From the NCBI GenBank assembly GCA_964432405.1, contig CAYSNH010000004.1:10737-42736 (forward strand): a stretch of 32,000 bases of DNA, in the 5' to 3' direction. The translations under genes were made by a program, and so were the position numbers. Every line of letters starts with the position of its first letter. Position 1 is the first letter of the stretch. This stretch comes from an uncultured Candidatus Saccharibacteria bacterium (GTDB taxonomy: Bacteria > Patescibacteriota > Minisyncoccia > UBA6257 > UBA11618). A model generated the notes under the pieces. That model was given only the letters and a program-made list of their open reading frames with translations. It was not told where the DNA came from and ran no database searches. Below, one piece after another: positions 1-21,473 of the stretch.

Positions 1-47
1 TGGTCGTATCAATGTGGCCGCTGAACCACCACAAGACTTTCAAGACG

Positions 48-1880
48 CTATAACTTCTTTAGCTGGAGACTAATTATTTCTTTTGCCGAGGGCCTCTCAT
101 TCTTATAGATAAAATAAGGACCACCTGATTCTTGCCAGATAAAGCCAGGAGGTGCTTCTATGGAAAATTCTAGACTGGTATTAACACCTGACTGTTTATC
201 AAAGATAAAATGATATAAGCCACTTTTTTGTTTTTCAATATAAAAACGGTTTTTATTCTTATATCTAACCTCTAAGCTTTTTGTTTTGCCAGCTGGCACA
301 TTGAACCAGGTATCAAAAACCTGCTTGCCAAACTGCTCACCATTTTCAATAGCAGCTAGATCAGGATCGGTCCTATAACCCCTTTTATAATTAACCCGAG
401 GTTTTATCTTCTTCTTGCTATCTCCAGTAATGCTTAATAATTTTGATCCTAGCGGAGTGAGAATCTGAATGTAGTTTTGGTTAGTTTTTCTGTACCAAGA
501 GTCTTTTTCATTTTGACCATTATGAGAGCGGGTAATTGTTAGATTATTTAATACCTCCCCCTTCTCATTTATCTTGCTTTCCAGATTGATTTTTTGATTG
601 ATAAAGGCATCACTTTTTCCACCAGCAATATTGGCATTAACTACCGCCAAATATTCACCAAAGAAATCTTCGGGTAGGCGAGTAACTTCTCCGCCAACGC
701 CCATGTTCTGAATAAAATTCTCCATTATCAGATCATCTAGATAGATCATAATGTCTTTTTTCTCAATTCGGTCTTTTACAATCTCTACCAAAGCCATCTT
801 TTCTTTTTCTTCTAACTTACCCAGTTTTTCAAAAACAATAGGGGTGGCGGTTTTAAGAACGTTTTTATTCTTATTAGTCTCAACATTAAGTTGAATTTCT
901 GAAAGGAAATTGTTGTGATCTAAAGTCATTTCATACTCCTTTAATTCAATGGGGCCGATTATTTTCAAAATATCGTTAATAACATGAACATTAATTGCTA
1001 CCACTCCATCAAACTTAGTTCCCTTGTCTTGATAAGTTTGAGAGATTTCTAATAGTTCAATAATTTTTTTGGCTGAGGTAGGAAAGTCAAAGAACCAGTT
1101 AGCATCTCTAGCTCCCCAGTTAGGAGTGATAGTTTGAAGAGCTTTAGGAGGAATAATCTTTTTCTTTAACTGACCATCAATATCATAAATATCATTAACC
1201 TCTAAATTGGTCATGCTAGCTTGATGAAGGGTTAGCTGTGCAAAGCTGCCGATAAATCCTCCAGCCGGCCTCATCTCAGAGGGGTTTTGAAAAATAACTA
1301 CCAAGTGATGAGGCTGCTTATCCTTCAGCCAGCCAATGAAGGATTCAAGAAATATTTTTGATGATTGAAGTTGATGGCTCATGGTCATTAACTCACCTCC
1401 AAGATTGAAATCAACCTCCTTGGCTTGTTTTTTAAGGTCATTTGTTAGAAGGGTTAATTTATTGATATCTCTTAACACCTCTTCCATCACTTTTATTAAT
1501 GATAGGCCTTTTTCTTGCAACACTAGCTCTGCCCCTTCTTTCTTTAGATGGTCTAATTTAACAGTGAGATTGGCGGCTGTGTTTGTGATCTCATCGATAT
1601 TATTGAATATAGGAGGCAGATTCCTTAAAACCGGTATAAATTTTGTGAGAGTAGGTAGTTGGTCTTGTAGTAGGTCAATCTCTTTTTTAACCATATCAAA
1701 ATGAGCAATCGCTCCATTTGGCTCCAGGTTAAATAAAGAAGCCAGCGCTTCTTTAAAACTTAGAGAGACGTTATCAGCGGAGGTTAGGGCTTGATCTTTA
1801 AACTCCTTCAAACCCACAAAAAAGACACCCGCTCCTATAGCCATTATTAGTATTAAAAAAATAATCGTTCTAAGCCTCAT
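48..1880 (-). CDS. DUF4012-domain membrane protein: N-terminal TM helix, coiled-coil region, large extracytoplasmic domain
   Basis: 610-aa ORF. N-terminal hydrophobic helix (IIFLILIMAIGAGVFFVGL). The motif NPSEMRPAGGFIGSF resembles the DUF4012 signature as I recall it. Start overlaps the stop of the upstream glycosyltransferase gene by 11 nt. Confidence 0.7.
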   Translation of the reverse strand: MRLRTIIFLILIMAIGAGVFFVGLKEFKDQALTSADNVSLSFKEALASLFNLEPNGAIAHFDMVKKEIDLLQDQLPTLTKFIPVLRNLPPIFNNIDEITNTAANLTVKLDHLKKEGAELVLQEKGLSLIKVMEEVLRDINKLTLLTNDLKKQAKEVDFNLGGELMTMSHQLQSSKIFLESFIGWLKDKQPHHLVVIFQNPSEMRPAGGFIGSFAQLTLHQASMTNLEVNDIYDIDGQLKKKIIPPKALQTITPNWGARDANWFFDFPTSAKKIIELLEISQTYQDKGTKFDGVVAINVHVINDILKIIGPIELKEYEMTLDHNNFLSEIQLNVETNKNKNVLKTATPIVFEKLGKLEEKEKMALVEIVKDRIEKKDIMIYLDDLIMENFIQNMGVGGEVTRLPEDFFGEYLAVVNANIAGGKSDAFINQKINLESKINEKGEVLNNLTITRSHNGQNEKDSWYRKTNQNYIQILTPLGSKLLSITGDSKKKIKPRVNYKRGYRTDPDLAAIENGEQFGKQVFDTWFNVPAGKTKSLEVRYKNKNRFYIEKQKSGLYHFIFDKQSGVNTSLEFSIEAPPGFIWQESGGPYFIYKNERPSAKEIISLQLKKL

Positions 1881-2967
1881 ATTCGTTAAAAATATTCAAT
1901 AATTGATGAGCTGATTTATCCCAACTAAATCGCTGTCTATTAATGAGCCCCGCCTCCTTTAATTTGTTTTTTAAGTTGGTAGTTAAGACTTCTTCTATCG
2001 TACCAGCTAGATCATGAATTCGCCATGGATCTATTAATCGGGCCGAATCACCCAAAACCTCAATCAAAGAGGTTCTTCGACTAGCAATAACCGGACAGCC
2101 ACAAGCTTGAGCTTCTAGGGGTGGTAGGCCAAAGCCTTCAAAAAAAGAAGGAAATATTAATGCTTCGGCTAGATTATATAATAATGGTCGATCTTTATCT
2201 TCCACTGACCCCCATAGAATAATATCTTCTTTATAGGGCGAGGCTTCGTAGGTCTTTAAAGTTTTTTTATACAACCATCCTAGGCGACCAGCCAAGACCA
2301 GCTTTAGATCCTTTAACTGACCATTGGCTTTCACGATATTAAAAGCTTTAATGATTGCGGCAACATTCTTTCTTGGCTCAATAGTACCGAGGTATAAGAT
2401 GAAAGGGGCTTGTAATGAAGAGGGTCTTTTAACATTTAAAACTTTAAACTTCTCATCAATTCCCAAAGGCACCACTCTTATCTTCTCCTCAGGCACTTTT
2501 AGAGTTTCAATTAGGTCTTGCTTGGTAAAGTTAGAGACGGCGGTAATTAGAGAAGCTTCTTTTATTTGAGATTTATAGTCTTGCAGCCAATGCCAGATCT
2601 GTGATTGGCGAGGAAAGAGGTGGGGGTAATGAATAAAAGAAAGATCATGAATAGTTAATATTCTTGGAACCTTGGTTTTTAATAGATTGAGATTAGGGCT
2701 AAATATCAGATCTGCTGGAGGGAGGGGAGATTTTTTCATAAAATGACTATTTAAATCAAACAACTTATTAGGCATTTTCCTATCAATTATTGTTGCCTTG
2801 TTAGGCCAGGTTGTTGGTAGCGGATGCTTTTTCCAGCCGTTATAAAATAGTTGATAGGAATTCTTTTTATCAATAGCTAAAAGATTGGATACCAAGTGCC
2901 TAGTATACTCCTCAATCCCTGATTGACCTCCTTTACTCAAAAGGCGAATATCGATAAGAATCTTCAT
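1870..2967 (-). CDS. Glycosyltransferase, GT-B fold family 4 (group 1 glycosyltransferase)
   Basis: 365-aa ORF with the C-terminal signature FPSFFEGFGLPPLEAQACGCPVIAS typical of GT4 enzymes. Co-oriented with and overlapping the DUF4012 gene. Confidence 0.85.
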   Translation of the reverse strand: MKILIDIRLLSKGGQSGIEEYTRHLVSNLLAIDKKNSYQLFYNGWKKHPLPTTWPNKATIIDRKMPNKLFDLNSHFMKKSPLPPADLIFSPNLNLLKTKVPRILTIHDLSFIHYPHLFPRQSQIWHWLQDYKSQIKEASLITAVSNFTKQDLIETLKVPEEKIRVVPLGIDEKFKVLNVKRPSSLQAPFILYLGTIEPRKNVAAIIKAFNIVKANGQLKDLKLVLAGRLGWLYKKTLKTYEASPYKEDIILWGSVEDKDRPLLYNLAEALIFPSFFEGFGLPPLEAQACGCPVIASRRTSLIEVLGDSARLIDPWRIHDLAGTIEEVLTTNLKNKLKEAGLINRQRFSWDKSAHQLLNIFNEYEA

Positions 2968-3010
2968 TGCCTTAAGAAAAGCAGAAAATAATCAGATACT
3001 CAATTTTTAC

Positions 3011-3039
3011 TTGCCAATCTAATAAAAATACTCTATTAT
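3011..3039 (+). promoter_or_regulatory. Putative sigma70-type promoter of rplS (TTGCCA-17-TATTAT) in leaderless-like geometry
   Basis: TTGCCA at 3011-3016, 17-nt spacer, TATTAT at 3034-3039. The ATG at 3049 is 9 nt downstream, with no Shine-Dalgarno in between. Confidence 0.45.
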
Positions 3040-3048
3040 CTAACTACT

Positions 3049-3372
3049 ATGATTGATGAGAAAATTATTGATCAAATAAGGCCCGGCGCTACAGTTCTCG
3101 TACAGGAGATCATTAAAGATGGTGATAAAAAGAGAGCTAGTAACTTCAAGGGTATCGTTTTAGCTAGAAAGCACGGTAAAGAAATCGGAGCTACTTTTAC
3201 CGTTCGCTCAATTATCTCTGGTGAGGGTGTAGAGAAGGTTTATCCTATTAACTCGCCAAGGATTGGTAAAGTGGAAATTATCTCTACTCCTGGTAGAGTA
3301 CGTCGTTCTAAACTATACTTTTTACGTAGCCTGTCAGCTAAGCAGATTAGACAGAAGCTAGGTTCAAAATAA
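3049..3372 (+). CDS. rplS: 50S ribosomal protein L19
   Basis: 107-aa ORF; sequence (RPGATVLVQEIIKDGDKKRASNFKGIVLARKHG...RIGKVEII) matches the bL19 family pattern. Confidence 0.95.
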   Translation: MIDEKIIDQIRPGATVLVQEIIKDGDKKRASNFKGIVLARKHGKEIGATFTVRSIISGEGVEKVYPINSPRIGKVEIISTPGRVRRSKLYFLRSLSAKQIRQKLGSK

Positions 3373-3455
3373 GCGCGAGTGGCGGAACGGTAGACGCGCA
3401 AGCTTGAGGGGCTTGTGGGAGCAATCCCGTGGAGGTTCAAATCCTCTCTCGCGCA
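3373..3455 (+). tRNA. tRNA-Leu (anticodon GAG), class II with long variable arm
   Basis: Hand-folded cloverleaf. Acceptor GCGCGAG/CTCGCGC. Anticodon stem CAAGC/GCTTG with loop TTGAGGG gives GAG. Long variable arm. T-arm GGAGG-TTCAAAT-CCTCT. Discriminator A. No encoded CCA. Confidence 0.9.
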
Positions 3456-3470
3456 CTATATAATATAAAT

Positions 3471-3986
3471 ATGAAACATTTAGACCCTAAAGCCATTTGG
3501 CTCTTCTTTATTGGATTAGTAATTGGTTGGACTATTATGATGTTCTTTTTATCTTTTTGGATTGCTGGTGTTACAATCGCCTCTTTGCAAATAGGAGAGG
3601 ATTATAGTGTGGGCCCCTTTCTTACACTCTTCATGATATTTCTGGTTGGTTTTTATGCTGCTCTTTATTTCTGGGCTAAGCTATCATACCAAAATTATAA
3701 GTATCAATTGAGACCCGAAGGTTTTTATAAAGAATACGGCGTTATTTGGAAGAAGTACGTCACCATTCCTTATAGTCGCATTCAAAACGTTGATATCTAT
3801 AGAGGTTTAATCGTTCGTCTTCTAGGCCTTTCTGATCTTCACATTCAAACCGCTGGCATGAGCTTTACGGGCAAAAGAGGATCTCGTTCAGAAGGTCGTC
3901 TTCCGGGCCTTAGCATCAAAGAAGCTACTATGATTAGAGATGATTTAATCAAACGCTCTCAAAAGTCTAGTGCCCAGGGGCTTTAA
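3471..3986 (+). CDS. Membrane protein with bacterial PH domain (bPH_2 / YdbS-like, DUF304)
   Basis: Two N-terminal TM helices followed by YSRIQNVDIYRGLIVRLLGLSDLHIQTAG, typical of bPH_2. The track start at 3429 lies inside the tRNA-Leu gene, so I trimmed to the ATG at 3471. TATAAT at 3459-3464 sits 6 nt upstream. Confidence 0.7.
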   Translation: MKHLDPKAIWLFFIGLVIGWTIMMFFLSFWIAGVTIASLQIGEDYSVGPFLTLFMIFLVGFYAALYFWAKLSYQNYKYQLRPEGFYKEYGVIWKKYVTIPYSRIQNVDIYRGLIVRLLGLSDLHIQTAGMSFTGKRGSRSEGRLPGLSIKEATMIRDDLIKRSQKSSAQGL

Positions 3987-3992
3987 GTTTAT

Positions 3993-4020
3993 TTGACTTT
4001 TTTAATAAAAGTAGTATAAT
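3993..4020 (+). promoter_or_regulatory. Promoter of small-ORF module A (TTGACT-16-TATAAT)
   Basis: TTGACT at 3993-3998, TATAAT at 4015-4020. Followed by a leader of about 35 nt and AAGGAG at 4054-4059. Confidence 0.5.
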
Positions 4021-4065
4021 ATAGGCAGTTCTTCAGTTTTTGTAACCTGCATAAAGGAGTAATGC

Positions 4066-4320
4066 ATGTTTTGTCAATATTGTGATGTTGATTTGAACGA
4101 AGAAAACTCTTCGGAGGTGACAGTGATGTATAATCTCTGTTCCGAATGTTTTCATAATTCTGACACCTTGATTTATTTTAGTCATGGTGAAACGGCTGAT
4201 CAGTCTCAGTCATCAGGAGAGAATCAAGACTTTCCTCTTTTGAAACCAAGAAAAGAAGAAGCGGTTGAGGAGTTTGATTCTTTTGATGATTGGAATTTGA
4301 AAACACAAAAGCCTCGTTGA
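4066..4320 (+). CDS. Small hypothetical protein with an N-terminal CxxC...CxxC zinc-ribbon-like motif and an acidic tail (module A)
   Basis: 84-aa ORF. CQYC...CSEC pair. AAGGAG 6 nt upstream of the ATG. Own promoter and terminator. Host-like AT-rich composition (21 G+C in line 4141-4200). Confidence 0.5.
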   Translation: MFCQYCDVDLNEENSSEVTVMYNLCSECFHNSDTLIYFSHGETADQSQSSGENQDFPLLKPRKEEAVEEFDSFDDWNLKTQKPR

Positions 4321-4324
4321 GCTT

Positions 4325-4353
4325 GGGCCCACGCTAGTGTGGGCCCTTTTTTT
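4325..4353 (+). terminator. Rho-independent terminator of module A
   Basis: GGGCCCAC / GTGGGCCC 8-bp GC stem with a 6-nt loop, followed by TTTTTTT. Confidence 0.75.
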
Positions 4354-4386
4354 ATTCTTTAAATTAGTTATATTAAATATTACCTT

Positions 4387-5232
4387 ATGTCCAAGATATT
4401 AATTGTTGATAGTGGAGCAACTAAGACCAGTTGGCTTTATTGCTGCGATGGAGAAAAGAAGCTGCTTAACACCAAGGGGCTTAATCCTTATTTTGTTAGC
4501 GTTTCTGACATTACTAAAATCATTCAAGATACCTTTGCTCCTTTAGGAATTAAAGAGATTGATCATTTATTTTTTTATGGAGCCGATTGTGATGGCGAGC
4601 TTTCAAAGCAGAAGATTAGCCAGGGCTTGAAAAACTATTTTGTTGTAAAGGATCTTTATATAGAGGGAGATCTTTTAGGATCTGCTCGGGCTGCGTGTGG
4701 CAATGAATCAGGAGTCTGTTGCATTTTAGGGACCGGGTCTAACGCTTGTATTTATGATGGAAAAGAAATAACACAGTCTATTGGTGGGCTGGGGTATGTT
4801 TTAGGCGACGAGGGTAGTGGCGCTTATCTAGGTCGCCTATTAGTTCGCAAAGTTTTGAATAGACAGTTGAGCAACGATTTATTAAATAAATTTTTCAAAG
4901 AGTATTCGCTAACCCCTGCCCTTATTCTTGACCAAGTTTACTCTCCTAATCGATCCAGTTATTTTCTAGCTAGCCTAACTCACTTTCTTAAGCAAAATAA
5001 CGACCAACCTGAGATTAGGGAGATTATTAAGCAAAGTTTCGATGACTTTATTAAAGCCAACATTCTTCTTTTACCTAAGTACAAACAATATAAGATTAAC
5101 TCTATTGGCTCGATCGGCTTTTATTTCAAGGAGTTCTTTATATTAGCCTGCAAGGATCATGAGTTGGAGGTGGGGCAGGTGATAGATAGGCCGATAGATC
5201 TCTTGTATCAATTTCACATTAATAATAGCTAA
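4387..5232 (+). CDS. BadF/BadG/BcrA/BcrD-type ATPase, N-acetylglucosamine kinase-like sugar kinase
   Basis: 281-aa ORF with the ASKHA-fold motifs DSGATKT, ILGTGSN and GGLGYVLGDEGSGAYLG. Confidence 0.75.
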   Translation: MSKILIVDSGATKTSWLYCCDGEKKLLNTKGLNPYFVSVSDITKIIQDTFAPLGIKEIDHLFFYGADCDGELSKQKISQGLKNYFVVKDLYIEGDLLGSARAACGNESGVCCILGTGSNACIYDGKEITQSIGGLGYVLGDEGSGAYLGRLLVRKVLNRQLSNDLLNKFFKEYSLTPALILDQVYSPNRSSYFLASLTHFLKQNNDQPEIREIIKQSFDDFIKANILLLPKYKQYKINSIGSIGFYFKEFFILACKDHELEVGQVIDRPIDLLYQFHINNS

Positions 5233-5267
5233 AATCTAACATTGACAGAAAATGGCTTTAGGGGGGG

Positions 5268-5295
5268 TTGACTTTTTTTTATATTAATATATAAT
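5268..5295 (+). promoter_or_regulatory. Promoter of GC-rich module B (TTGACT-16-TATAAT)
   Basis: TTGACT at 5268-5273, TATAAT at 5290-5295. The leader contains the hairpin CGTACC(5304-5309)/GGTACG(5318-5323). AAGGAG at 5344-5349. Confidence 0.55.
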
Positions 5296-5357
5296 AGGGC
5301 AATCGTACCTGAGGATGGGTACGGAGTACGTTAACTTTTTTAGAAGGAGTGCATGCT

Positions 5358-5882
5358 ATGCACGAAGGCGAACAAGTTGGTCAAGGCGGAGCAACGGCAA
5401 CTATTGATCGTTCAGTCCCGGCGGAAAAGAGCGGCGACGGTTTCAAGGCTGTCATTGCGGATTTGATCACTACTCCTGACAGAGTGGCGCTGATCATCTC
5501 GACCAGGCTCACCGGCCAGGAAATGCCCGAGGAGACGAGCGAACTTTCCGCTTCGGAAGTCCAGTTGGTCAAGTATCTTGATCAGCTCGTCCAATGTGGC
5601 AACGAAAAGGCGTTGTCGGAGATACAGGTCGTTGTGAAAAGCGAGGCTTTTCTTCATCAAGTGGATGATGCTGTGAAGCTCATCCAAGGCGACCAGGAAA
5701 GCGTCGCAATTGAAGAGAGGGCTCACGAATCCTCCGAGAAGCTGAAGAGCTTCATTATTGAGGGAGCGATGAAGGCCGCAACTCCGGCTGAGAGCTGGGA
5801 AGTTGAATCGACGCAAGAAGCCAAGACGATTACTGCGATAGCAAGATTGCTGCAGCATCTCGTGTCCTTGCGCTGCGCTTGA
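5358..5882 (+). CDS. Orphan acidic 174-aa protein, GC-rich (module B)
   Basis: The ATG at 5358 is 8 nt after AAGGAG. The track GTG at 5349 overlaps the SD, so I rejected it. G-rich first codon positions (GAA/GGC/GTT/GCG) support coding. 34 G+C in line 5401-5460. No signal peptide or TM segment. No family recognised. Confidence 0.55.
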   Translation: MHEGEQVGQGGATATIDRSVPAEKSGDGFKAVIADLITTPDRVALIISTRLTGQEMPEETSELSASEVQLVKYLDQLVQCGNEKALSEIQVVVKSEAFLHQVDDAVKLIQGDQESVAIEERAHESSEKLKSFIIEGAMKAATPAESWEVESTQEAKTITAIARLLQHLVSLRCA

Positions 5883-5922
5883 TCCTTCTGATCGACGACC
5901 TCTTTTTTGAGATGTCGTGCCG

Positions 5923-5954
5923 CCCCCTGTAGCTTAGGCTGCAGGGGGTTTTTT
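5923..5954 (+). terminator. Rho-independent terminator of module B
   Basis: CCCCCTGTAGC / GCTGCAGGGGG 11-bp stem (one G-U pair), loop TTAG, then TTTTTT. Confidence 0.8.
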
Positions 5955-6003
5955 ATTTCAATAAAGCTTTCCAAAAGCAGTTTTTTGTTTTATTATTTTC
6001 AAT

Positions 6004-6549
6004 GTGAAAGAGTATTGTACTGAGGCTATCGTTTTAGATAAAGAAGATCTTGGGGAGCTTGATTCACGAGTCTTTTTTTATACTAAGAGTCTTGGCAAGG
6101 TGGTTGGTAAAGCCACTAGTGCTCGAAAGATAACATCAAAACTCAATGCTCATTTAGAACCCTTAAATCTAGTTCAATTAAGACTGATTCATAAGAATAA
6201 TTTTCAGATTATTGACGCCCTAACTATTGATCGTTTTTCTGCCTTGCGTCATCCAGATCGACTTCCTCAGATTCTCAATCTCTTGTCTTTTATAAAGGAA
6301 ATGACTTTTGAGGAACAAGATGATTTCGAATTATGGAGTGCTTTCAAAGACATTCTCTATTCAGAAAAGATTACTTATCAGTTCTTATTAAGATCATTAG
6401 GCTTTGATCCGCAGTTTGCTCTTTGTGACACTTGTCAGAAAAAACCTCATTATTTTATTGCTCAAGACTTCAGTTTTTGTTGTCAGCAATGTCTAACCGA
6501 AGCAAATAATAATAAAGTATGCTTAAAATCCTATATACCATTGTCTTAA
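6004..6549 (+). CDS. recO: DNA repair protein RecO
   Basis: 181 aa. N-terminal OB-fold-like sequence (AIVLDKEDLGELDSRVFFYTKSLGKVVGKA). C-terminal Cys pairs (CDTC...CCQQC). GTG start. TATTAT at 5991-5996 is 7 nt upstream. Confidence 0.8.
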   Translation: MKEYCTEAIVLDKEDLGELDSRVFFYTKSLGKVVGKATSARKITSKLNAHLEPLNLVQLRLIHKNNFQIIDALTIDRFSALRHPDRLPQILNLLSFIKEMTFEEQDDFELWSAFKDILYSEKITYQFLLRSLGFDPQFALCDTCQKKPHYFIAQDFSFCCQQCLTEANNNKVCLKSYIPLS

Positions 6550-8189
6550 TAGTTATTTTAGCCGGTTTGGCCTATTTCGGCTTTTACTGGTTCACTCATG
6601 ATAATAGTGGGTTGGTTTTGGAGTTTAATGGTCCAGAATCGGTACCAATTGGTATGCCTTTTGATTTAGAGGTTGGAGTCAACAACAACTCCAGTCAGGT
6701 TTTGAATAATGCTAAACTTCTTCTTTCGGTACCTAAGGGCATAGTTTTTGTTGGTAGGTCGATTGATGAAAATATCATTTCTCGCAAGATTGGTAATGTT
6801 GGCGTGGGTAGTTTAACTAGTCAAAAATTTAAATTATTAATTCTTAAAGGAAAAGAGGATGATATTAAAAATATCACAGCGACCATTGATTATTCGCCAG
6901 AGGATGTCAAAACTCGTTTTCAAAAAAGATCGAGTTGGCAAACACCAATTATGGGAGAGGCTCTTGAGTTAATAGGCGTGCTACCAGAAAAAATTACCAG
7001 CGGCAAAGTGGTTGAGTTGAAGATAGATTATAAGAACAATAGCCCTATTGATTTAGATGATCTTATTTTAAAGATTAAATACCCAGAATCATTCCAATTT
7101 CAAAGAGCTACCTTAAAGCCTGATGAGGGTAATAACGAGTGGCATCTTGGAGGTCTTCACCCTGGCTCATCTAATGACTTCGTTATTATTGGTAAGCTGG
7201 TTGGTCCAGAAAACGGATTTTTTGATTTTAAGGCCACCGTCACAAGTGAGTTAGATGGTCGCAAATATATTATTAGCGAAAAGGTTATCAATACCTCTAT
7301 TAAAGTTGCTCCTATAGATCTAGGCTTTTCAGTTAACAACTCTACCAATCACATCGCCAAAACCGATGAAGAATTAAATTACTCTATCAATTATCGCTAC
7401 CTCACCCGTTCTCAGGGCAATGATCCTGTGGTTAAGGCTAAGTTAAGTGGCAAGATGTTTGATTTTGAATCTCTTAAGATAGGTGATAATGGCCAGTTAG
7501 ATGATCGGACCAATACTATCATCTGGCAATTAGATGACGGGGTTCAGTCTGGTAGTGTTAATTTCTCCATAAAAACTCAACCTAAATATCCTATTAGAAG
7601 AGCTGGTGATCGCAACTTTGTTTTAAAGGTGGACGCTCAGTTTGAAGATAGTTCTCACGCAACTGTTAGCCGCTCTGAAACAAAGGTTGCTGGTCAAATA
7701 GAAGTTGATACCAAGGGCTACTTCCGCGACGCAAAGGGCAAGGTGGTTAATAATGGCTCTCTTCCTCCTCAGGTTGGTAAGCCAACTGAGTTTAGTATTC
7801 ATTGGGATATTACCAACTACGCTACCGATGTTAGCGATGTTAAAGTTACCGCCCGACTTCCTAGTCATGTAGAATTTGTTGGAGTTAAGAGTGAGACGGA
7901 TGGGAGTCTTAGTTTCGACGAAGATTCTCCAGAATTCTTAACTTGGGAGATAGATAAGATTTCTGCTACCAAAGGAGTTATTAGCAAGCCGGTCACAGCT
8001 ATTTTTCAGATAAGAGCCGTACCAACTAAGGAGATGATTGGTAAGCACATGTCATTAATAGGGCCAACTACTATTAGCGCTACCGATAAATTTACCGACT
8101 CTCCATTGAGTGGCGGTGATGATTCTTTAACTACCGAGCTAACTGATGACCCTACTTTAAGTGCTTCGGATGGAATTGTGGTAGAATAA
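6519..8189 (+). CDS. Large N-terminally anchored extracytoplasmic protein, beta-rich repeats (tentatively DUF11/CARDB-like)
   Basis: 556-aa ORF with a single N-terminal TM helix (ILYTIVLIVILAGLAYFGFYWF). Repetitive beta-strand-like segments. No catalytic motif recognised. Overlaps the recO 3' end by 31 nt. Confidence 0.6.
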   Translation: MLKILYTIVLIVILAGLAYFGFYWFTHDNSGLVLEFNGPESVPIGMPFDLEVGVNNNSSQVLNNAKLLLSVPKGIVFVGRSIDENIISRKIGNVGVGSLTSQKFKLLILKGKEDDIKNITATIDYSPEDVKTRFQKRSSWQTPIMGEALELIGVLPEKITSGKVVELKIDYKNNSPIDLDDLILKIKYPESFQFQRATLKPDEGNNEWHLGGLHPGSSNDFVIIGKLVGPENGFFDFKATVTSELDGRKYIISEKVINTSIKVAPIDLGFSVNNSTNHIAKTDEELNYSINYRYLTRSQGNDPVVKAKLSGKMFDFESLKIGDNGQLDDRTNTIIWQLDDGVQSGSVNFSIKTQPKYPIRRAGDRNFVLKVDAQFEDSSHATVSRSETKVAGQIEVDTKGYFRDAKGKVVNNGSLPPQVGKPTEFSIHWDITNYATDVSDVKVTARLPSHVEFVGVKSETDGSLSFDEDSPEFLTWEIDKISATKGVISKPVTAIFQIRAVPTKEMIGKHMSLIGPTTISATDKFTDSPLSGGDDSLTTELTDDPTLSASDGIVVE

Positions 8190-8199
8190 ATAAAATATT

Positions 8200-9474
8200 A
8201 TGGATCTAATGGAGAAAATTGTTAGTTTAGCTAAGCGCCGAGGCTTTATATTTCCCGGTTCAGAGATTTATGGTGGTCTAGCTAACTCATGGGATTATGG
8301 ACCTTTGGGGGTGGAGTTGAAGAATAATATCAAGCAAGAGTGGTGGAAGCGCTTTGTTCAGAGTCGAGATGATGTTATTGGTATCGAGACCGCCCTTATT
8401 ATGAATCCTAAGGTTTGGGAGTCTTCTGGTCATCTCAAAACTTTTTCTGATCCTTTGGCAGATTGTAAGGGGTGTCGGAGGCGTTTTCGAGCTGATCAAT
8501 TAAAAAATAAAAAGAAGTGTCCTGACTGTGGAGGAGAGCTAACCAAAGCTCGCCAATTCAATTTAATGTTTAAGACTTTTATTGGTCCATCTGAGGAGTC
8601 TTCTAATGTTGCTTATTTTCGACCAGAAACCGCTCAAGGAATGTTTGTTAATTTTGAGCAGGTGATTAATAGCACTCGTAAAAGACTGCCTTTTGGTATT
8701 GCTCAGATTGGAAAGGCTTTTCGTAATGAGATTACTCCCGGCAACTTTATCTTTCGTACGCTTGAGTTTGAGCAAATGGAGATAGAATATTTTATTAAAA
8801 AAGAGGAGTGGGAAAAGCAGTTTGAAAAATGGTTGAAGGAGATGAAGCAATGGATCAAGCATCTAGGAATTGCTAATAAAAATATCGAGGTCATTGATAT
8901 TCCCAAGAAAGAGCTAGCCCACTATTCCAAGAGAACTGTCGATATATTTTACAAATTCCCTTTTGGTCATGAAGAATTATATGGTTTAGCTTATCGTTCT
9001 GACTTTGATCTTAAGAATCACAATCAAAGCTATCAAGACCCTAAAACAGGTAAGCAGTTTACCCCTCATATTATCGAGCCAACTTTGGGAGTTGAGCGAA
9101 CCGTATTGGCGGTAATGGTGGAGTCGTATAAGGAGGAAAGTGTAAAAGGAGAGACGCGAGTTGTGATGAACTTTCCTAATTGGCTAGCACCTTATAAAGT
9201 AGCTATATTGCCTTTATCTAAAAAAACTCCATTAACCAAACTAGCTAAAAGCATATATAAAGATCTCCTCCCTCACTTTACTTGCGAATATGATGAAACG
9301 CAGAGTATTGGTAAGCGTTATCGACGTCAGGATGAGATCGGAACCCCTTTCTGCATTACGGTTGATTTCGATAGCCCTAAGAAGAAAGACGTTACTGTTA
9401 GAGATCGTAACACTATGAAACAAAAGCGCGTTAAAATTAATAAATTACAACAATACTTAAATGAAGCCCTTTAG
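8200..9474 (+). CDS. glyQS: Glycine--tRNA ligase (class II, alpha2 homodimeric type)
   Basis: 424 aa. N-terminus KRRGFIFPGSEIYGGLANSWDYGPLGVELKNNI plus FRNEITPGNFIFRTLEFEQMEIEYF are diagnostic of GlyRS. Confidence 0.95.
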   Translation: MDLMEKIVSLAKRRGFIFPGSEIYGGLANSWDYGPLGVELKNNIKQEWWKRFVQSRDDVIGIETALIMNPKVWESSGHLKTFSDPLADCKGCRRRFRADQLKNKKKCPDCGGELTKARQFNLMFKTFIGPSEESSNVAYFRPETAQGMFVNFEQVINSTRKRLPFGIAQIGKAFRNEITPGNFIFRTLEFEQMEIEYFIKKEEWEKQFEKWLKEMKQWIKHLGIANKNIEVIDIPKKELAHYSKRTVDIFYKFPFGHEELYGLAYRSDFDLKNHNQSYQDPKTGKQFTPHIIEPTLGVERTVLAVMVESYKEESVKGETRVVMNFPNWLAPYKVAILPLSKKTPLTKLAKSIYKDLLPHFTCEYDETQSIGKRYRRQDEIGTPFCITVDFDSPKKKDVTVRDRNTMKQKRVKINKLQQYLNEAL

Positions 9475-10735
9475 CAGAAAGGTTCTTAAAAACGGATTAC
9501 GTATTATTACCGTTCCACAAAAAGACAGTTTATCAGCTACCGTTCTAGTTTTAGTTGAGGCAGGTTCTAAATATGAGACCAAGAGAATCAGTGGCCTTTC
9601 TCACTTTCTAGAACACATGTGTTTTAAGGGCACTTCTAATCGTCCCAGCGCTCTTCACATCACTACCGAGCTAGATCAGTTAGGAGCTCAGTATAACGCT
9701 TTTACCGGTCAGGAGTATACTGGTTATTATGCAAAAGTTCGATCGGAAAAATTAACAGATGCGGTTGATATTATTGCCGACCTGTACAGCAATCCGCTCT
9801 TAAATGAGGAGGAGATTGAAAGAGAGAAGGGCGTTGTTATTGAAGAGATTAATATGTACGAAGATCTTCCACCTCGAAAGGCTCCAGAATTATTTGAAGA
9901 GCTTCTTTATGGTGATCAGCCTGCTGGTTGGCCAATTGGTGGACTTAAAGACGTTATTCGTAAATTAAATAGAAAAGATTTGGTTAAATATCGCAGTCAG
10001 CACTATGTCGCTCAAGCCACCTCTATTGTTGTGGTCGGATCCTTTAATGAGAAGAAGCTGATTAAGCAGCTAGAAGAAGCTTTTGCCAATGTTCCTTCTA
10101 ATAAAAAGTTTGGCAAGGTTAAAACCAGAGAATCTCAGAAAAAACCCCAACTGTCTATTCAGTACAAAAAATCAGATCAGACTCATTTAGTTATTGGCTG
10201 TCGGTCTTTTGCTGAAGATGATGAGAGGCGTTTTGCTCTAAGGGTCATGAATGATATCTTGGGTGGTGGTATGAGCTCTCGTCTTTTTCAAAGAGTCAGA
10301 GAAGAGTTAGGTGCGGCTTATTATGTTCGTTCAGGAGCTAGTCTCTACACAGATCATGGTTATTGGGCCGCTGGTGCTGGAGTTGATCATAAAAAACTTA
10401 ATCTAGTTATCAAGGCCATTCTAGAAGAGATGAGGCGTTTAACTAGAGAGCCTGTTTCCAAAGAAGATCTTCAGCGTGCTAAAGATCATTTGAGCGGTAA
10501 CTTGGTTTTGGGATTGGAGTCGTCTGATGATCTAGCGCTTTTTTATGGCATGCAAGAAATATCTAATAGACCTGTTATGACACCCCAGCAAATTTTAAAG
10601 AAAATTATTGATGTTAAGCCAAATGATATTATGAAGGTGGCTAAGCATATATTTACTAATAAAAAATTAAACTTGGCTTTGATTGGACCAACTAGAAGTA
10701 AGGGTACTTTAATTAAAAATTTGCGTTTTGATTAA
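9461..10735 (+). CDS. M16-family zinc peptidase (insulinase-like)
   Basis: 424 aa. Inverted zinc motif HFLEHMCFKGT (HxxEH). Overlaps the glyQS stop by 14 nt. Confidence 0.85.
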   Translation: MKPFSRKVLKNGLRIITVPQKDSLSATVLVLVEAGSKYETKRISGLSHFLEHMCFKGTSNRPSALHITTELDQLGAQYNAFTGQEYTGYYAKVRSEKLTDAVDIIADLYSNPLLNEEEIEREKGVVIEEINMYEDLPPRKAPELFEELLYGDQPAGWPIGGLKDVIRKLNRKDLVKYRSQHYVAQATSIVVVGSFNEKKLIKQLEEAFANVPSNKKFGKVKTRESQKKPQLSIQYKKSDQTHLVIGCRSFAEDDERRFALRVMNDILGGGMSSRLFQRVREELGAAYYVRSGASLYTDHGYWAAGAGVDHKKLNLVIKAILEEMRRLTREPVSKEDLQRAKDHLSGNLVLGLESSDDLALFYGMQEISNRPVMTPQQILKKIIDVKPNDIMKVAKHIFTNKKLNLALIGPTRSKGTLIKNLRFD

Positions 10736-10756
10736 AAACGAGTTTTAATTTATTTA

Positions 10757-11782
10757 ATGGAGAATAAATCTACCAACGAAGTATTCAGCTGGATAGCTCT
10801 ATGGAGAATAGTGGCTGTCGCTGCTTTTGTTTGGGTTATTTTCAGTGCTCTTAATGTTGTTTTGGCGATCTTTGTTGCTTTTGTTATTGCTGCTGGTTTG
10901 GATGCTCCCGTTAGTTATTTGAGTAAGAAAGGCATTCCTAGAATTCTAGGCACTTTAATATTTTTTATCATCGGTTTATCGTTTTTAGCAGGTTTAGTTT
11001 ATACAATCGTTCCCCTTGCTATCTCCGACTTCACTCAATTATTCCTCAATCTTAAGGATTACGCGGGACCGTTTCTTGATAATTTTCAAGCCGGTGAGAC
11101 TTTAGATATTATCAATCAGAGACTCAATGCTTTTTCAGACACCTTAGTTAGTGGCACCATACCTCTAACATCGGTTATCGGTTCACTTTTTGGCAACATC
11201 TTCTTAGCTATTACTGTACTTATGATCTCTTTTTATCTCACCGTTGGGCAAGATGGAATCGAGCGCTTCTTAGTAGCTGTTCTACCTACCGCTTATGAAG
11301 AGTCAGCTATCGATCTTTATTTAAAAACTAGAAAAAAGATTGGTCAGTGGCTGAAGGGTCAGATGCTATTAAGCCTAGTGATAGGTCTCTTAACTTTCAT
11401 CGGTTTATATTTCCTTGATGTTAAATACGCCCTTCTTCTAGCTTTATTAGCCGGCGTCTTTGAATTGATTCCTTTTGTAGGGCCGGTCTTCAGTGGTGGT
11501 ATAGCGGTCTTGATTGGTCTTTCAACCTCCTTCAATCTCGCCCTTTATGTATTAATACTCTTTGTTATTATTCAGCAATTAGAAAACAACTTACTAGTAC
11601 CAATAGTTATGAAATATACTACCAATCTTAACCCAGCTGCTATTCTGATATCTATTTTGATTGGTGGTACCGTCTTTGGCTTTACCGGTCTAGTTCTTGC
11701 CGTTCCTGCCTCAGTGTTAATTCAAGAGGTTATTGAAAAATGGGCTACGGCCAAGAGAAGAAAAAAAGGTTTGGGCCTATAA
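10757..11782 (+). CDS. AI-2E family transporter (PerM/UPF0118 permease)
   Basis: 341 aa, multi-TM. Conserved C-terminal region LAGVFELIPFVGPV...LLVPIVM typical of the family. Confidence 0.85.
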   Translation: MENKSTNEVFSWIALWRIVAVAAFVWVIFSALNVVLAIFVAFVIAAGLDAPVSYLSKKGIPRILGTLIFFIIGLSFLAGLVYTIVPLAISDFTQLFLNLKDYAGPFLDNFQAGETLDIINQRLNAFSDTLVSGTIPLTSVIGSLFGNIFLAITVLMISFYLTVGQDGIERFLVAVLPTAYEESAIDLYLKTRKKIGQWLKGQMLLSLVIGLLTFIGLYFLDVKYALLLALLAGVFELIPFVGPVFSGGIAVLIGLSTSFNLALYVLILFVIIQQLENNLLVPIVMKYTTNLNPAAILISILIGGTVFGFTGLVLAVPASVLIQEVIEKWATAKRRKKGLGL

Positions 11783-11803
11783 AAAAACCCCGCTAAAGCA
11801 GGG
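11781..11803 (-). terminator. Rho-independent terminator oriented for minus-strand module E
   Basis: Minus-strand reading: CCCTGC-TTTA-GCGGGG followed by TTTTTTT. The mismatch seen on the plus strand becomes a G-U pair on the minus strand. The TAG stop of ORF E lies in the loop. The permease stop is immediately adjacent. Confidence 0.6.
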
Positions 11804-12026
11804 TTGTAACTCTATCTTTTCTGATCAACGTCACCCTTCCTGAGGGTGATTCTTCTATAATGATGAATTGATCTAAAGCAAAAGTTTTTTCCTCGTGCCA
11901 TCTCTGAGGTCTTTTGTACCCATAGATGAAGGCGGTGAGAAAGGAACAGAGCAGACGACGATCTCTTGATCGTACCCAGAGGACGATGTGATCTTCGTCT
12001 TGCAGGTTAAGTTTAAGTTGTTGCAT
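11793..12026 (-). CDS. Orphan 77-aa protein, GC-enriched (module E)
   Basis: The ATG at 12026 is 8 nt after AAGGAG (12040-12035, minus strand). The track TTG at 12032 is only 2 nt from the SD. 30 G+C in line 11941-12000. Own promoter and terminator. No family recognised. Confidence 0.5.
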   Translation of the reverse strand: MQQLKLNLQDEDHIVLWVRSRDRRLLCSFLTAFIYGYKRPQRWHEEKTFALDQFIIIEESPSGRVTLIRKDRVTTLL

Positions 12027-12068
12027 TTTCAACTCTCCTTAGTTGTGTGATTTTAAATTCCAGGCCAT

Positions 12069-12097
12069 ATCATATAATAATTTAATAAAATTGTCAA
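12069..12097 (-). promoter_or_regulatory. Promoter of module E (TTGACA-17-TATGAT, minus strand)
   Basis: Reverse complement gives TTGACA (12097-12092), a 17-nt spacer and TATGAT (12074-12069). Leader of about 30 nt to the SD. Confidence 0.5.
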
Positions 12098-12138
12098 TTC
12101 TGGAAAAAAACCAGCAAAAGAACTATAATCCTTATACA

Positions 12139-13515
12139 ATGTCAAAATTTTATATCACCACCTCAATCGCTTATGTTAACGGAGCGCCTCATATAGGTTT
12201 TGCTTTAGAGTCCGTCCAGGCTGATGCTATCGCTCGTTATCATCGTCAACAAGATGACCAAGTCTTCTTTTTAACTGGTACTGATGAACATGGTGCTAAA
12301 ATATCTCGTACAGCCGAGGCATTAAAGATAACACCTGAGGAGCTAACCGATACGAACGCTGCTAAGTTTAAGGCTCTGAAAGAGTTACTAAACCTTTCCT
12401 GGGATGATTTTATTAGAACTAGCGATAAAGAAAAACATTGGCCAAATGTTGTTAATCTTTGGCACAAGTTAGAAGCTAGGGGTGATATTTATAAAAAGGT
12501 ATACAAAGGTCTTTATTGTGTAGGTCACGAAGCTTTTGTAACGGAGAAGGATCTGGTTGATGGGCAGTGTCGAGATCATCAGAGTAAACCAGAGATTATT
12601 GAAGAAGAAAACTACTTCTTCCGTCTCTCTAAGTACGCTGATCAGATTAAAAGTCTGATAGAGAGCGAAGAGTTAAAAATCTATCCTCAGAGCAGAGCTA
12701 ATGAGATTATCAGCTTTATTAATCAAGGCATTGAGGATATTAGCTTTTCCCGACCCCGAAAAGATCTAAGTTGGGGCATTCCCGTTCCTGGTGATGAAAC
12801 GCAGACTATCTATGTTTGGTGTGATGCTCTTTCCAATTATCTTTCTCAGCCTGATCAGTGGCCAGCCGAGCTGCAAATCATTGGAAAAGATATTTTGCGC
12901 TTTCACGCTCTATTTTGGCCTGCCATGTTACTCTCCGCCAAACTACCTTTACCCAAAGCCCTTTTTGTTCACGGTCACATTACGGTTGATAATCAGAAGA
13001 TGTCTAAAAGCTTAGGGAATGTTATCGATCCGGTAGAGTTAGTGAACAGGTATGGTGTTGATGCTGTCCGTTACTACCTCCTACGAGAAATTCCTCCTTT
13101 TAATGATGGGGATTTTAGTTATAAGAAGTTTGAGGAGCGCTATAACGGTGATCTAGCTAATGGCTTAGGTAACTTTGTTTCTCGAGTTTTTGCCTTGCAG
13201 AAAAGATTAGAGGTTTCGGCTGCTGATAAAAGCTCTGATGATGTTGGTGACTTTATCAAACGAGTACGGGAACAGATGGGCTCTAGAATGGAGCAGTATC
13301 GTCTTAACGAGGCCCTAGAAACTCTCTGGGAGTTGATTAGTCGCGGTGATAAGTATATAAATGAAAAAAAGCCTTGGGAGACGGGTGATAAGAATGCGGT
13401 AGCTAATGCTCGGGAGTTGGTTGATCAGGTTGCAGAATTATTAAAGCCCTTCCTTCCAGAAACAGCAGAAAAAATAATTAAAGGAGAGCCAGGAACTTTA
13501 TTTCCTCGGTTGTAA
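12139..13515 (+). CDS. metG: Methionine--tRNA ligase (short form, no C-terminal tRNA-binding extension)
   Basis: HIGH-type motif (APHIGFALE) and KMSKS (KMSKSLGN). True start is the ATG at 12139 (MSKFYITTSIAYVNG). The 32-codon TTG extension in the track covers the divergent promoter region. TATAAT at 12124-12129 is 9 nt upstream. Confidence 0.95.
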   Translation: MSKFYITTSIAYVNGAPHIGFALESVQADAIARYHRQQDDQVFFLTGTDEHGAKISRTAEALKITPEELTDTNAAKFKALKELLNLSWDDFIRTSDKEKHWPNVVNLWHKLEARGDIYKKVYKGLYCVGHEAFVTEKDLVDGQCRDHQSKPEIIEEENYFFRLSKYADQIKSLIESEELKIYPQSRANEIISFINQGIEDISFSRPRKDLSWGIPVPGDETQTIYVWCDALSNYLSQPDQWPAELQIIGKDILRFHALFWPAMLLSAKLPLPKALFVHGHITVDNQKMSKSLGNVIDPVELVNRYGVDAVRYYLLREIPPFNDGDFSYKKFEERYNGDLANGLGNFVSRVFALQKRLEVSAADKSSDDVGDFIKRVREQMGSRMEQYRLNEALETLWELISRGDKYINEKKPWETGDKNAVANARELVDQVAELLKPFLPETAEKIIKGEPGTLFPRL

Positions 13516-13521
13516 CAGATT

Positions 13522-14328
13522 ATGACTTTATTTGATGCCCATACTCATATTCATTTTCCCGCCTATGATCAAGATCGAGAGGAGGTGATTAAGCGTGCTC
13601 AAGCGGCTGAGGTTAAGATGATTACCGTCGGCACCAATCTAGAGACCTCTCAGGGCGCTATCGCTTTAGCTAATCAGTATCCAGATGATATCTGGGCTAC
13701 CGCTGGCTTTCACCCTGCTCATGCTGGTGAAAATTGGCATCACGATAAGAAGGAGCAAAAGAAATCTCAACAGGAAAGCTTTGATAAAGAAGCTTTGCTA
13801 GCACTAGCTAAAGATGAGCGAGTGGTAGCGATTGGGGAGTGTGGTTTGGATTATTTTCGTGGTCGAGAAAGTGAAGCAGCTCAAAAAGATATTTTTCAAC
13901 AACAGCAGGTGATTGCTCAATCACTTAGCAAGCCTCTTATGATTCACTGTCGCCCTACCTCCAACACTGATGACGCTTATGAGGACCTAGTTGAGTTATT
14001 AAATCCTAATACTCCCACTATTATACATTTCTTTGTTGGTTCAGCTGATGTGGCTAAGAAGTTGTTAGCTAAAAAATGTTACTTTACTTTTGGCGGGGTA
14101 ATTACATTCGTCAGTGACTATAACGAAGTTATCAAGGCGATTCCTTTATCTAATATAATGCTGGAGACCGACGCCCCTTATGTCACCCCTCATCCTCATC
14201 GAGGAAAAAGAAATGAGTCGTCTTATGTAGTTGAGGTGGCTAAAAAAATAGCCGAAATCAAAGATATTGATTATGATGAAGTAGTGGCGCAGACTACTGC
14301 TAACGCAAAGAAAGTTTTTAATATTTAA
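13522..14328 (+). CDS. tatD: TatD-family metal-dependent hydrolase (DNase)
   Basis: 268 aa with the motifs DAHTHIHF, GECGLDYF, MIHCR and LETDAPY. Confidence 0.9.
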   Translation: MTLFDAHTHIHFPAYDQDREEVIKRAQAAEVKMITVGTNLETSQGAIALANQYPDDIWATAGFHPAHAGENWHHDKKEQKKSQQESFDKEALLALAKDERVVAIGECGLDYFRGRESEAAQKDIFQQQQVIAQSLSKPLMIHCRPTSNTDDAYEDLVELLNPNTPTIIHFFVGSADVAKKLLAKKCYFTFGGVITFVSDYNEVIKAIPLSNIMLETDAPYVTPHPHRGKRNESSYVVEVAKKIAEIKDIDYDEVVAQTTANAKKVFNI

Positions 14329-20157: not shown

Positions 20158-20163
20158 ATTGTG

Positions 20164-20236
20164 TGGACCGTAGGAGAATCGAACTCCTGACCTCCTCATT
20201 GCAAATGAGGCGCTCTACCGACTGAGCTAACGGCCC
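20164..20236 (-). tRNA. tRNA-Ala (anticodon TGC)
   Basis: Reverse complement GGGCCGTTAGCTCAGTCGGTAGAGCGCCTCATTTGCAATGAGGAGGTCAGGAGTTCGATTCTCCTACGGTCCA. Has the G3:U70 identity pair. Anticodon loop TTTGCAA. Confidence 0.9.
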
Positions 20237-20239
20237 ATG

Positions 20240-20321
20240 CGGAGGGTATAGGAATCGAACCTATGAGGGATTGCTCCCGCCGCTTTTCGAAAGCGGTGCA
20301 TTACCATTCTGCCAACCCTCC
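20240..20321 (-). tRNA. tRNA-Ser (anticodon CGA), long variable arm
   Basis: Reverse complement begins GGAGGGTTGGCAGAATGG. Anticodon stem CCGCT/AGCGG with loop TTCGAAA. Long variable arm. T-arm ATAGG-TTCGATT-CCTAT. Confidence 0.85.
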
Positions 20322-20323
20322 TG

Positions 20324-20396
20324 TGTCCCTACCAGGAATCGAACCTAGATCTAGAGTTTAGGAAACTCTCGTTTTATCCATTAAACTACAGGGACA
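20324..20396 (-). tRNA. tRNA-Arg (anticodon CCT)
   Basis: Reverse complement GTCCCTGTAGTTTAATGGATAAAACGAGAGTTTCCTAAACTCTAGATCTAGGTTCGATTCCTGGTAGGGACA. Anticodon loop TTCCTAA. Confidence 0.85.
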
Positions 20397-20486
20397 AGTT
20401 TTCAATCAACCCTATTATACCGAATTGTCAATTATTTAACAATAGCTGTACAAAGGATATCTAATATTATATATTTTTTTAGTATT

Positions 20487-20559
20487 GGGCCATTAGCTCA
20501 GCTGGCAGAGCGCTTCTATGGCATAGAAGAGGTCATCGGTTCAAATCCGATATGGTCCA
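20487..20559 (+). tRNA. tRNA-Ala (anticodon GGC)
   Basis: GGGCCATTAGCTCAGCTGGCAGAGCGCTTCTATGGCATAGAAGAGGTCATCGGTTCAAATCCGATATGGTCCA. G3:U70 present. Anticodon loop ATGGCAT. Confidence 0.9.
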
Positions 20560-20566
20560 CAGTCAA

Positions 20567-20602
20567 ATAGTACATACTATAGTACATACCTTAGTATATA
20601 CT
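20567..20602. repeat. Three tandem 12-bp units (ATAGTACATACT / ATAGTACATACC / TTAGTATATACT) between convergent tRNA genes
   Basis: Read directly from the sequence. Confidence 0.8.
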
Positions 20603-20614
20603 ATTTTTAATTGG

Positions 20615-20697
20615 CGGAGGGTATAGGATTCGAACCTATAAGGGATTGCTCCCGCCGGTTTTCAAGACCGGTGCATTAGCCGTTCTGCCAACCCTCC
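20615..20697 (-). tRNA. tRNA-Ser (anticodon TGA), long variable arm; genomic CCA follows (to 20612)
   Basis: Reverse complement begins GGAGGGTTGGCAGAACGG. Anticodon stem CCGGT/ACCGG with loop CTTGAAA. 3' end is ...ACCCTCCG followed by CCA. Confidence 0.85.
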
Positions 20698-21429: not shown

Positions 21430-21473
21430 ACCTTAACTCTATCCCTACAGGGGAAAATTGTAAATTGAAAATC

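Follow-up and report, generated by a model that had tools for sequence, protein, structure and literature searches.

Conserved expression signals frame a hyper-divergent, recombining and GC-rich gene upstream of recO in a Patescibacterium

Several bacterial loci combine conserved bounds with a hypervariable interior: the comC and agrD pherotype loci, the central domains of flagellins and the pilin genes are all of this kind. In AT-rich genomes, on the other hand, islands of high G+C content mark genes for structural RNAs. Here we analyze a locus that recalls both, in a 32,000-nt stretch (the window) of contig CAYSNH010000004.1 from an uncultured Candidatus Saccharibacteria bacterium, a member of the Patescibacteria, which are uncultured, have reduced genomes, and whose interactions with hosts and phages are mostly unknown. 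The locus, at positions 5268–5954, is a GC-rich unit that encodes a 174-aa protein directly upstream of recO. With the pherotype, flagellin and pilin loci it shares conserved expression signals and gene ends, discrete divergent allele classes and recombinant mosaics; with GC-island RNA genes it shares a sharp rise in G+C (approximately 52% against 38%), a promoter and terminator of its own, and open reading frames (ORFs) on both strands. The unit is an autonomous expression cassette in which conserved signals surround a hyper-divergent, recombining and weakly constrained coding body. We put the probability at roughly 0.6 that the whole is best explained as a clade-restricted, GC-rich coding unit at a recombining hypervariable locus, whose protein is made in abundance and has a fast-changing partner.

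Conserved signals around a divergent reading frame

All features described here lie on the forward strand. We denote the allele of the window, which is of type A, by W, and related metagenomic contigs or loci by L and a number. A first reading of the letters alone (the sequence-only reading) had proposed a complete unit with a TTGACT-16-TATAAT promoter, an AAGGAG motif 8 nt ahead of the ATG, a 525-nt ORF for 174 aa and an 11-bp GC-rich terminator, and each of these is in place. The promoter is of the sigma-70 type (5268–5295), with TTGACT at 5268–5273 separated by 16 nt from TATAAT at 5290–5295. It has 11 of 12 matches, is the top site of five in the region (shuffled sequence gives a mean of 2.5), and is kept in all alleles as TTGACA or TTGACT followed by TATAAT or TACAAT. 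Judging by the position of the −10 box, transcription would start near 5302, which gives a 5′ leader of 56 nt (5302–5357) up to the ATG at 5358, rather than the 50 nt or so proposed; it is approximately 90% identical between the two allele types defined below. The hairpin that had been seen in the leader is also borne out by folding, with a slightly longer stem than the 6 bp suggested: at 5304–5323, near the 5′ end, CGTACCT and GGGTACG enclose a GAGGAT loop and form 7 bp, six of them Watson–Crick and one G–U. The loop contains a Shine–Dalgarno-like GAGGA, and the 20-mer is identical in every allele. The Shine–Dalgarno sequence itself (AAGGAG, 5344–5349) is likewise kept in all alleles. The coding sequence runs from 5358 to the TGA stop at 5880–5882 and specifies an acidic, predicted all-helical product; the ORF listing starts it earlier, at GTG 5349, a codon that overlaps the Shine–Dalgarno sequence. 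On the 3′ side, a second hairpin is predicted in the untranslated region (UTR) at 5895–5918 in type A only, with a different hairpin at that place in type B. The intrinsic terminator follows at 5922–5954, where a GC-rich stem of 11–12 bp (5922–5949) with a TTAG loop precedes a T-run. This is the sole terminator-like site within 4800–6400, and its stem pairing is preserved 100% across seven alleles, including one compensatory change from C–G to U–A between the allele types.

Homologous loci were found through the same slot in relatives, with RecO as the guide. The sequence-only reading had raised the question of whether the gap between kinase and recO is empty in related genomes; instead, in close relatives the slot upstream of recO is filled by a homologue that has diverged very far but retains the promoter, leader and terminator. 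Specifically, L020, with 90% RecO identity, has a GC-rich 188-aa ORF upstream of recO whose body is barely recognizable, yet which shares promoter, leader hairpin, Shine–Dalgarno sequence and terminator with the window gene. Scanning metagenomes with the invariant 20-nt hairpin sequence returned six further loci, five with a complete ORF of 155–196 codons in the same frame and one (L028) in which the ORF is cut by the contig end after 37 codons. The unit stands directly upstream of recO in every member genome, all examined loci share the syntenic context, and the slot is bounded by the kinase gene and recO or, where the kinase is absent, by the small zinc-ribbon gene sm84 and recO.

The contrast between body and surroundings is clearest against the sister-species locus L029. 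There, 22 of 23 syntenic genes are 65–93% identical in protein, whereas the product of the 174-aa ORF is approximately 30% identical and the ORF gives no tblastn match. At the DNA level, blastn aligns 3–5366 and 5922–15887 at 80–81% identity; it loses the alignment at codon 4 and regains it at the base of the terminator stem, so that 5367–5921 is the sole stretch of 3–15887 unalignable to L029. Promoter, leader and terminator, at approximately 90% identity, are better conserved than the flanking coding DNA, and the first 15 or so codons share this level of DNA identity.

The alleles fall into two classes, A (this window) and B, with amino acid identities of only 27–31% between them. Profile alignment with hhalign nevertheless finds A and B homologous (E = 7.6e-5, 33% identity over 138 columns). 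The nonsynonymous divergence (dN) between A and B is 0.8–1.0, against 0.12–0.28 when type-B alleles are compared across species with the same synonymous divergence (dS) in recO. Such an excess at equal recO distance means that type A is an old allele class, or went through a burst of change, or is the product of replacement. Among type-B alleles dN/dS (ω) is 0.37–0.59, compared with 0.04–0.13 for recO in the same genomes, and by this measure purifying selection on the gene body is weak.

Recombination is visible within the family. The allele of L033 is a mosaic: it is L020-like at informative sites except over columns 174–338, where it is L024-like and lacks 105 nt in frame. This deletion thus occurs on two allele backgrounds, and both lineages have long and short forms. 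The mosaic allele lies at 2306–2779 of L033, and its L024-type tract on the L020-type backbone is approximately 165 nt long. More generally, distances between the ORFs disagree with the recO distances among loci. Divergence is also concentrated in the gene at the shortest time scale: W and L026, whose recO genes are identical, differ at nine positions in the 525-nt ORF and at nine in approximately 1820 nt outside it (Fisher p = 0.009), with dN of 0.020 against dS of 0.008 in the ORF. Most of the differences within the type-A population are nonsynonymous. Within type A, ω takes values of 0.9 and 2.4, from fewer than 10 sites. With conserved flanks, discrete divergent classes, a mosaic allele and divergence far above background, this is very probably a hypervariable recombining locus.

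That the island is a translated protein-coding gene is as good as certain, as the sequence-only reading had supposed when it preferred coding to a large structured RNA. Three-base periodicity, the first check it proposed, has a signal-to-noise ratio of 7.4, on par with neighbouring genes of similar length. The G+C fractions at the three codon positions are 0.61, 0.40 and 0.59, and G makes up 42% of first positions, a bias that had been one of the two grounds for the preference. The frame is intact in W, L001, L026, L020, L023, L024, L025, L027 and L033: the sense frame has no stop over 155–196 codons, while the off-frames have 3–13 stops per allele. In the DNA alignment of type-B alleles all indels within the coding sequence are multiples of three (24, 6, 105, 6, 6, 9 and 12 nt), and those in the 3′ UTR are 1–2 nt; substitutions by codon position follow the order 3 > 1 > 2. 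Among the seven more divergent type-B pairs, five have the lowest dN/dS of all six frames (0.37–0.53) in the annotated frame; for L023–L024 and L023–L027 the codon-aligned antisense frame is marginally lower. That antisense frame is also nearly stop-free in all alleles. Three antisense ORFs had been reported on the opposite strand, and we find them at 63, 148 and 83 aa. We rejected the 148-aa ORF, which lies in the codon-aligned antisense frame, as a real gene: its ω exceeds the sense-frame value in five of the seven pairs just mentioned, and it has no expression signals of its own. What keeps its frame open is the rarity of TTA, CTA and TCA codons.

Some smaller observations concern the start of the unit. 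Just upstream of the −35 box lies a run of seven G (5259–5265), which is a run of six in L002–L005 and L026, where 5261 is deleted. This may be a homopolymer of variable length or an artefact of assembly or sequencing; the −35/−10 spacing is unaffected. In L025, a 24-nt tandem duplication (2870–2917) of AGAAGGAGTGCAGCTATGCACGAA, comprising the Shine–Dalgarno sequence, the ATG and two codons, produces two in-frame starts, each with its own Shine–Dalgarno sequence, and an N-terminus longer by eight residues. Finally, GGCTTTA...TTGACTTTTTT is found both at 3979–4003, upstream of the zinc-ribbon gene (4066–4320), and at 5254–5278, in the promoter region of the 174-aa gene, and the two genes may have related promoters.

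Base composition and competing explanations

The gene departs from its surroundings in composition as much as in sequence. G+C is 0.50–0.53 over 5250–5850 and 0.31–0.47 elsewhere in the window, which has approximately 38% G+C overall and no other island above 48%; the 34 G+C in 60 nt counted by the sequence-only reading for 5401–5460 is exact. At third codon positions (GC3) the gene has 0.59, compared with 0.27–0.38 in neighbouring genes. All alleles share this property, with 50–54% G+C and a GC3 of 0.51–0.62, while recO of the same genomes has a GC3 of 0.27–0.35. Polarized with an outgroup by parsimony, a crude procedure with so few sequences, AT>GC changes number 33, 36, 62 and 73 against 26, 21, 44 and 44 GC>AT changes. 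Since AT>GC changes are at least as numerous as the reverse and every allele stays at 50–54% G+C, some process presumably maintains the composition.

The alternative that survives best, though we think it unlikely, is a recently acquired foreign gene in the interval next to a tRNA-Leu gene, GC-rich because its donor was and fast-evolving because it is dispensable. The high GC3 relative to the neighbours is what it predicts. It also gains from the distribution of the block formed by bPH, sm84, the kinase and the 174-aa ORF, which is absent in relatives with 58% RecO identity, where other small genes occupy the slot, one of them with 60% G+C, and from the nearest relatives of the kinase among GTDB representative genomes, which are Bacteroidota. 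However, approximately 15 billion proteins contain no homologue of the 174-aa protein outside the clade, nor do viral, phage and plasmid collections; promoter, leader and terminator are conserved and resemble the AT-rich host in type; and even alleles at saturated divergence (dS > 1.5) still have 50–54% G+C with no excess of GC>AT changes. The latter pattern is not that of a foreign gene drifting toward 38% G+C. An integrative element linked to the tRNA was looked for and rejected, since there is no repeat of the tRNA 3′ end in 3300–6100 and no integrase was seen. A foreign source concerns the origin of the gene, and is in part compatible with the explanation that we prefer, a clade-restricted coding unit at a recombining hypervariable locus.

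Three processes could hold the G+C content up: the locus may be a recombination hotspot subject to GC-biased gene conversion, the mRNA may be under selection, or alleles may be imported repeatedly from GC-rich sources that have not been sampled. GC-biased gene conversion has been documented in recombining bacterial genes (PMC4450053).

A second alternative, which we consider improbable, is that the ORF is decaying or functionless, evolving almost neutrally and open by chance because G+C richness removes stops. The ω values of 0.4–0.9, with 0.9 and 2.4 within type A, are as such a view would have them, as are the tolerated 35-codon deletion, the low confidence of the predicted fold and the lack of homologues elsewhere. 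Chance does not, however, readily explain a sense frame free of stops in alleles whose off-frames have several, nor indels in the coding sequence that are always multiples of three. Moreover, ω never reaches 1 between species and has its minimum in the sense frame for five of the seven type-B pairs with greater divergence, and the near-consensus expression signals are conserved (approximately 90%) above the flanking coding DNA (80–81%).

Less probable still is a large structured non-coding RNA in which the ORF is incidental, a reading that is largely refuted. A GC-rich island in an AT-rich genome invites it, hardly any stop interrupts the codon-aligned antisense frame in any allele, and the folding z-scores are negative: the coding sequence has −2.15, and the full transcript, with the hairpins at both its ends, −4.26. 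The antisense strand, however, reaches −3.23, and the folding signal is therefore not specific to the sense strand. Rfam covariance models, run at the gathering threshold and with E up to 10, find only tRNAs in the window and nothing on the island; the best sub-threshold score in 5100–6100 is 22 bits against a gathering score of 54. The sequence-only reading had named covariation and frame-breaking indels in homologous loci as the marks of an RNA, and neither was found: RNAalifold gives 8 compensatory pairs out of 201 and a covariation term of +0.05 kcal/mol, and even though divergence approaches saturation, the frame stays open and every indel in it is a multiple of three. The codon-position pattern and the frame-specific minimum of ω indicate translation, and both Shine–Dalgarno sequence and ATG are conserved.

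Most remote is a target of directed hypermutation, by a diversity-generating retroelement or similar: such elements are common in Patescibacteria and the diversity here is focused on one gene between conserved flanks, but no part of the transcript recurs in the 32-kb window, whether as a second copy or as a template repeat, no reverse transcriptase is among the genes scanned with Pfam or covered by precomputed hits (several window ORFs were outside the scan), the polymorphisms (T>C, G>T, A>G, G>A) are not adenine-specific, and variability extends over the whole ORF rather than a C-terminal stretch of approximately 100 nt.

The protein, its possible role and its neighbourhood

The protein was described from the letters as acidic, without a hydrophobic segment and of no recognized family, and this description holds. 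Its pI is 4.7 and its net charge −13, and no hydrophobic segment is present, the highest 19-residue Kyte–Doolittle mean being 1.25. AlphaFold2 models show approximately seven helices after a disordered N-terminal tail of approximately 25 residues, with a mean predicted local distance difference test (pLDDT) score of 49.6 from the single sequence and 45.4 from a seven-sequence alignment; the fold is probably helical. Foldseek against PDB and BFVD gave no match at E ≤ 0.001, a result that is uninformative given the low confidence of the query model. Single-sequence searches by k-mer and phmmer over 5.8 billion proteins recovered only the protein's own cluster, and a full phmmer search over 1.84 billion HMMER representatives only the protein itself. 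The family profile built from all alleles reached further, to six clusters at 90% identity among the 5.8 billion proteins, all unannotated. Nothing was found at curated cut-off or significance in Pfam, NCBIfam, PHROGs, PADLOC or the sequences of PDB; the protein has no relative in viral contigs, phage or plasmid collections, and the leader 20-mer has no copy in the viral contigs. The term orphan, used in the sequence-only reading, is thus apt in that no known family is involved, but the protein is not strictly unique: as far as these searches extend, it belongs to a small family confined to one small clade of marine Patescibacteria. The gene had appeared unique to one genome because its relatives are beyond the reach of sequence searches, and what led to them was the conservation of the non-coding leader rather than the protein, which is a lesson in itself.

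How such a unit might work can be outlined as follows. A consensus promoter, a 5′ hairpin, a strong Shine–Dalgarno sequence and one or two 3′ hairpins would give a stable and abundant mRNA, the leader hairpin presumably acting as a stabilizer. The protein would then be made in quantity, and would be cytoplasmic or exported by a non-classical route. If it engages a fast-changing factor of phages or host cells, variants would be favoured; the conserved flanks could serve as recombination handles, through which alleles are swapped by homologous recombination, and the gene may stay GC-rich through frequent recombination with GC-biased gene conversion, through selection acting on its mRNA, or through the two together. 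A conflict or partner-specific function is a possibility that we offer tentatively. More doubtful is the specific version in which the protein, abundant and acidic, meets a rapidly changing target of host cells or phages and determines specificity or conflict for an episymbiotic Patescibacterium. Its sharply different allele classes would be exchanged between species via the invariant promoter/leader and terminator as handles, at a recombination hotspot strong enough for GC-biased gene conversion to hold G+C approximately 14 points above the genome.

Several points weigh against the abundant protein with a fast-changing partner. High expression is deduced from sequence signals. The dN/dS values, below 1 in all inter-species comparisons, fit relaxed constraint as well as diversifying selection, and the nonsynonymous excess within type A comprises approximately nine sites and is not significantly different from the neutral 3:1. 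In addition to the crudeness of the polarization, recO likewise shows a mild AT>GC excess. The protein has neither a signal peptide nor a membrane segment that would point to the cell surface, the structure models are of low confidence (pLDDT 45–50), making the helical fold a prediction only, and no partner, defence or mobile-element gene adjoins the unit.

The genes on either side are, in line with what had been proposed, a kinase gene and recO. The upstream neighbour (4387–5232), outside the module, is a BadF/BadG/NagK-like kinase, with a Pfam match at E = 2.9e-7, just under the family threshold, and an NCBIfam NagK match at E = 1.5e-10, with 41 bits against a cut-off of 370. It is present in the window, L024, L025, L027 and L029 and absent in L020, L023, L033 and L034. 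A search of GTDB representative genomes returned relatives of the kinase exclusively from Bacteroidota, at 32–40% identity, which suggests that it was acquired separately, although its G+C content is host-like. Downstream, recO (6004–6549; RecO_N at E = 3e-11) served as the calibration gene for divergence; the nearest named relatives of its product are from Patescibacteria/Parcubacteria metagenome-assembled genomes, which identifies the genome as that of a Patescibacterium. The gene is short (181 aa), encodes a C-terminal Cys-rich motif and overlaps the next gene by 31 nt (6519–6549). The latter encodes a 556-aa DUF11/CLIPPER-repeat protein with an N-terminal hydrophobic segment, and the overlap is kept in all relatives.

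The variable interval that ends at recO has its left edge at tRNA-Leu(GAG) (3373–3456), and its gene content differs from genus to genus. In this clade it contains bPH, the small zinc-ribbon protein, the optional kinase and the 174-aa gene. The zinc-ribbon protein (84 aa, 4066–4320) has a CxxC...CxxC motif, an acidic tail, a pI of 4.2 and no family match; at 65–69% identity in the sister species, it is among the more divergent genes of the block. In relatives with 58% RecO identity all four genes are absent, and unrelated stand-alone small genes are found instead. One such relative, L021, has a 110-aa ORF at 5282–5614 with 60% G+C and a GC3 of 0.78, its own Shine–Dalgarno sequence and terminator, in a genome of approximately 43% G+C. 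In another, L022, the segment 4695–5280 comprises an acidic ORF of 85 aa, equipped with a TTGACA promoter and a terminator, and then a non-coding stretch of approximately 300 nt that contains an inverted repeat. Pfam matches neither of the two ORFs, and neither is homologous to the 174-aa family. Unrelated small genes in the same slot suggest that it accepts foreign genes, and the family may have entered in this way. Elsewhere in the window, five tRNA genes are clustered at 20163–20697 and a type IV pilus cluster at 21465–28201 encodes PilM, a PilO-like protein, PilB-type and PilT-type ATPases and PilC (T2SSF).

Comparison with known systems

A literature search for similar loci in Patescibacteria returned nothing relevant. 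Unlike the pherotype, flagellin and pilin loci, this one has no adjoining receptor or processing gene, its product has no signal peptide or hydrophobic N-terminus, its C-terminus is not conserved, and the protein family is unrelated. Unlike the RNA genes marked by GC islands, the island is translated and lacks both covariation and an Rfam match; a GC island in an AT-rich genome need not be a structural RNA.

Small acidic orphan inhibitors form another group for comparison, among them the DNA-mimic anti-restriction proteins and the anti-CRISPR proteins. Like these, the protein has fewer than 200 residues, a pI of 4.7, a charge of −13 and no detectable homologues, and it evolves rapidly behind a strong stand-alone promoter. 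In contrast to them, it is encoded at a fixed chromosomal site between housekeeping genes, syntenic in all members, rather than on a phage or plasmid, has no aca-type helix-turn-helix neighbour, and gave no match in structure or sequence searches.

The leader, in turn, can be compared with elements that stabilize mRNA from near the 5′ end, such as the ompA leader stem-loop and the cryIIIA STAB-SD. The resemblance lies in the hairpin approximately 2 nt from the predicted 5′ end, the GAGGA in its loop and the strong hairpin at the 3′ end. Two differences are that the hairpin here never varies, and so shows no covariation, and that the start site is deduced from sequence.

Within an otherwise conserved block of approximately 16–20 kb, the gene is the most divergent and most recombining sequence. 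Together with conserved signals and an apparent G+C equilibrium far from that of the genome, this makes it a concrete candidate for conflict-driven evolution. It also makes the locus a natural test case for recombination, by way of GC-biased gene conversion, as a possible cause of a local rise in G+C in an AT-rich bacterium. Among the known categories, the gene would best be described as a taxonomically restricted, fast-evolving accessory gene. What sets it apart, apparently, is the combination in a Patescibacterium of near-invariant expression signals with a local G+C equilibrium that is maintained.

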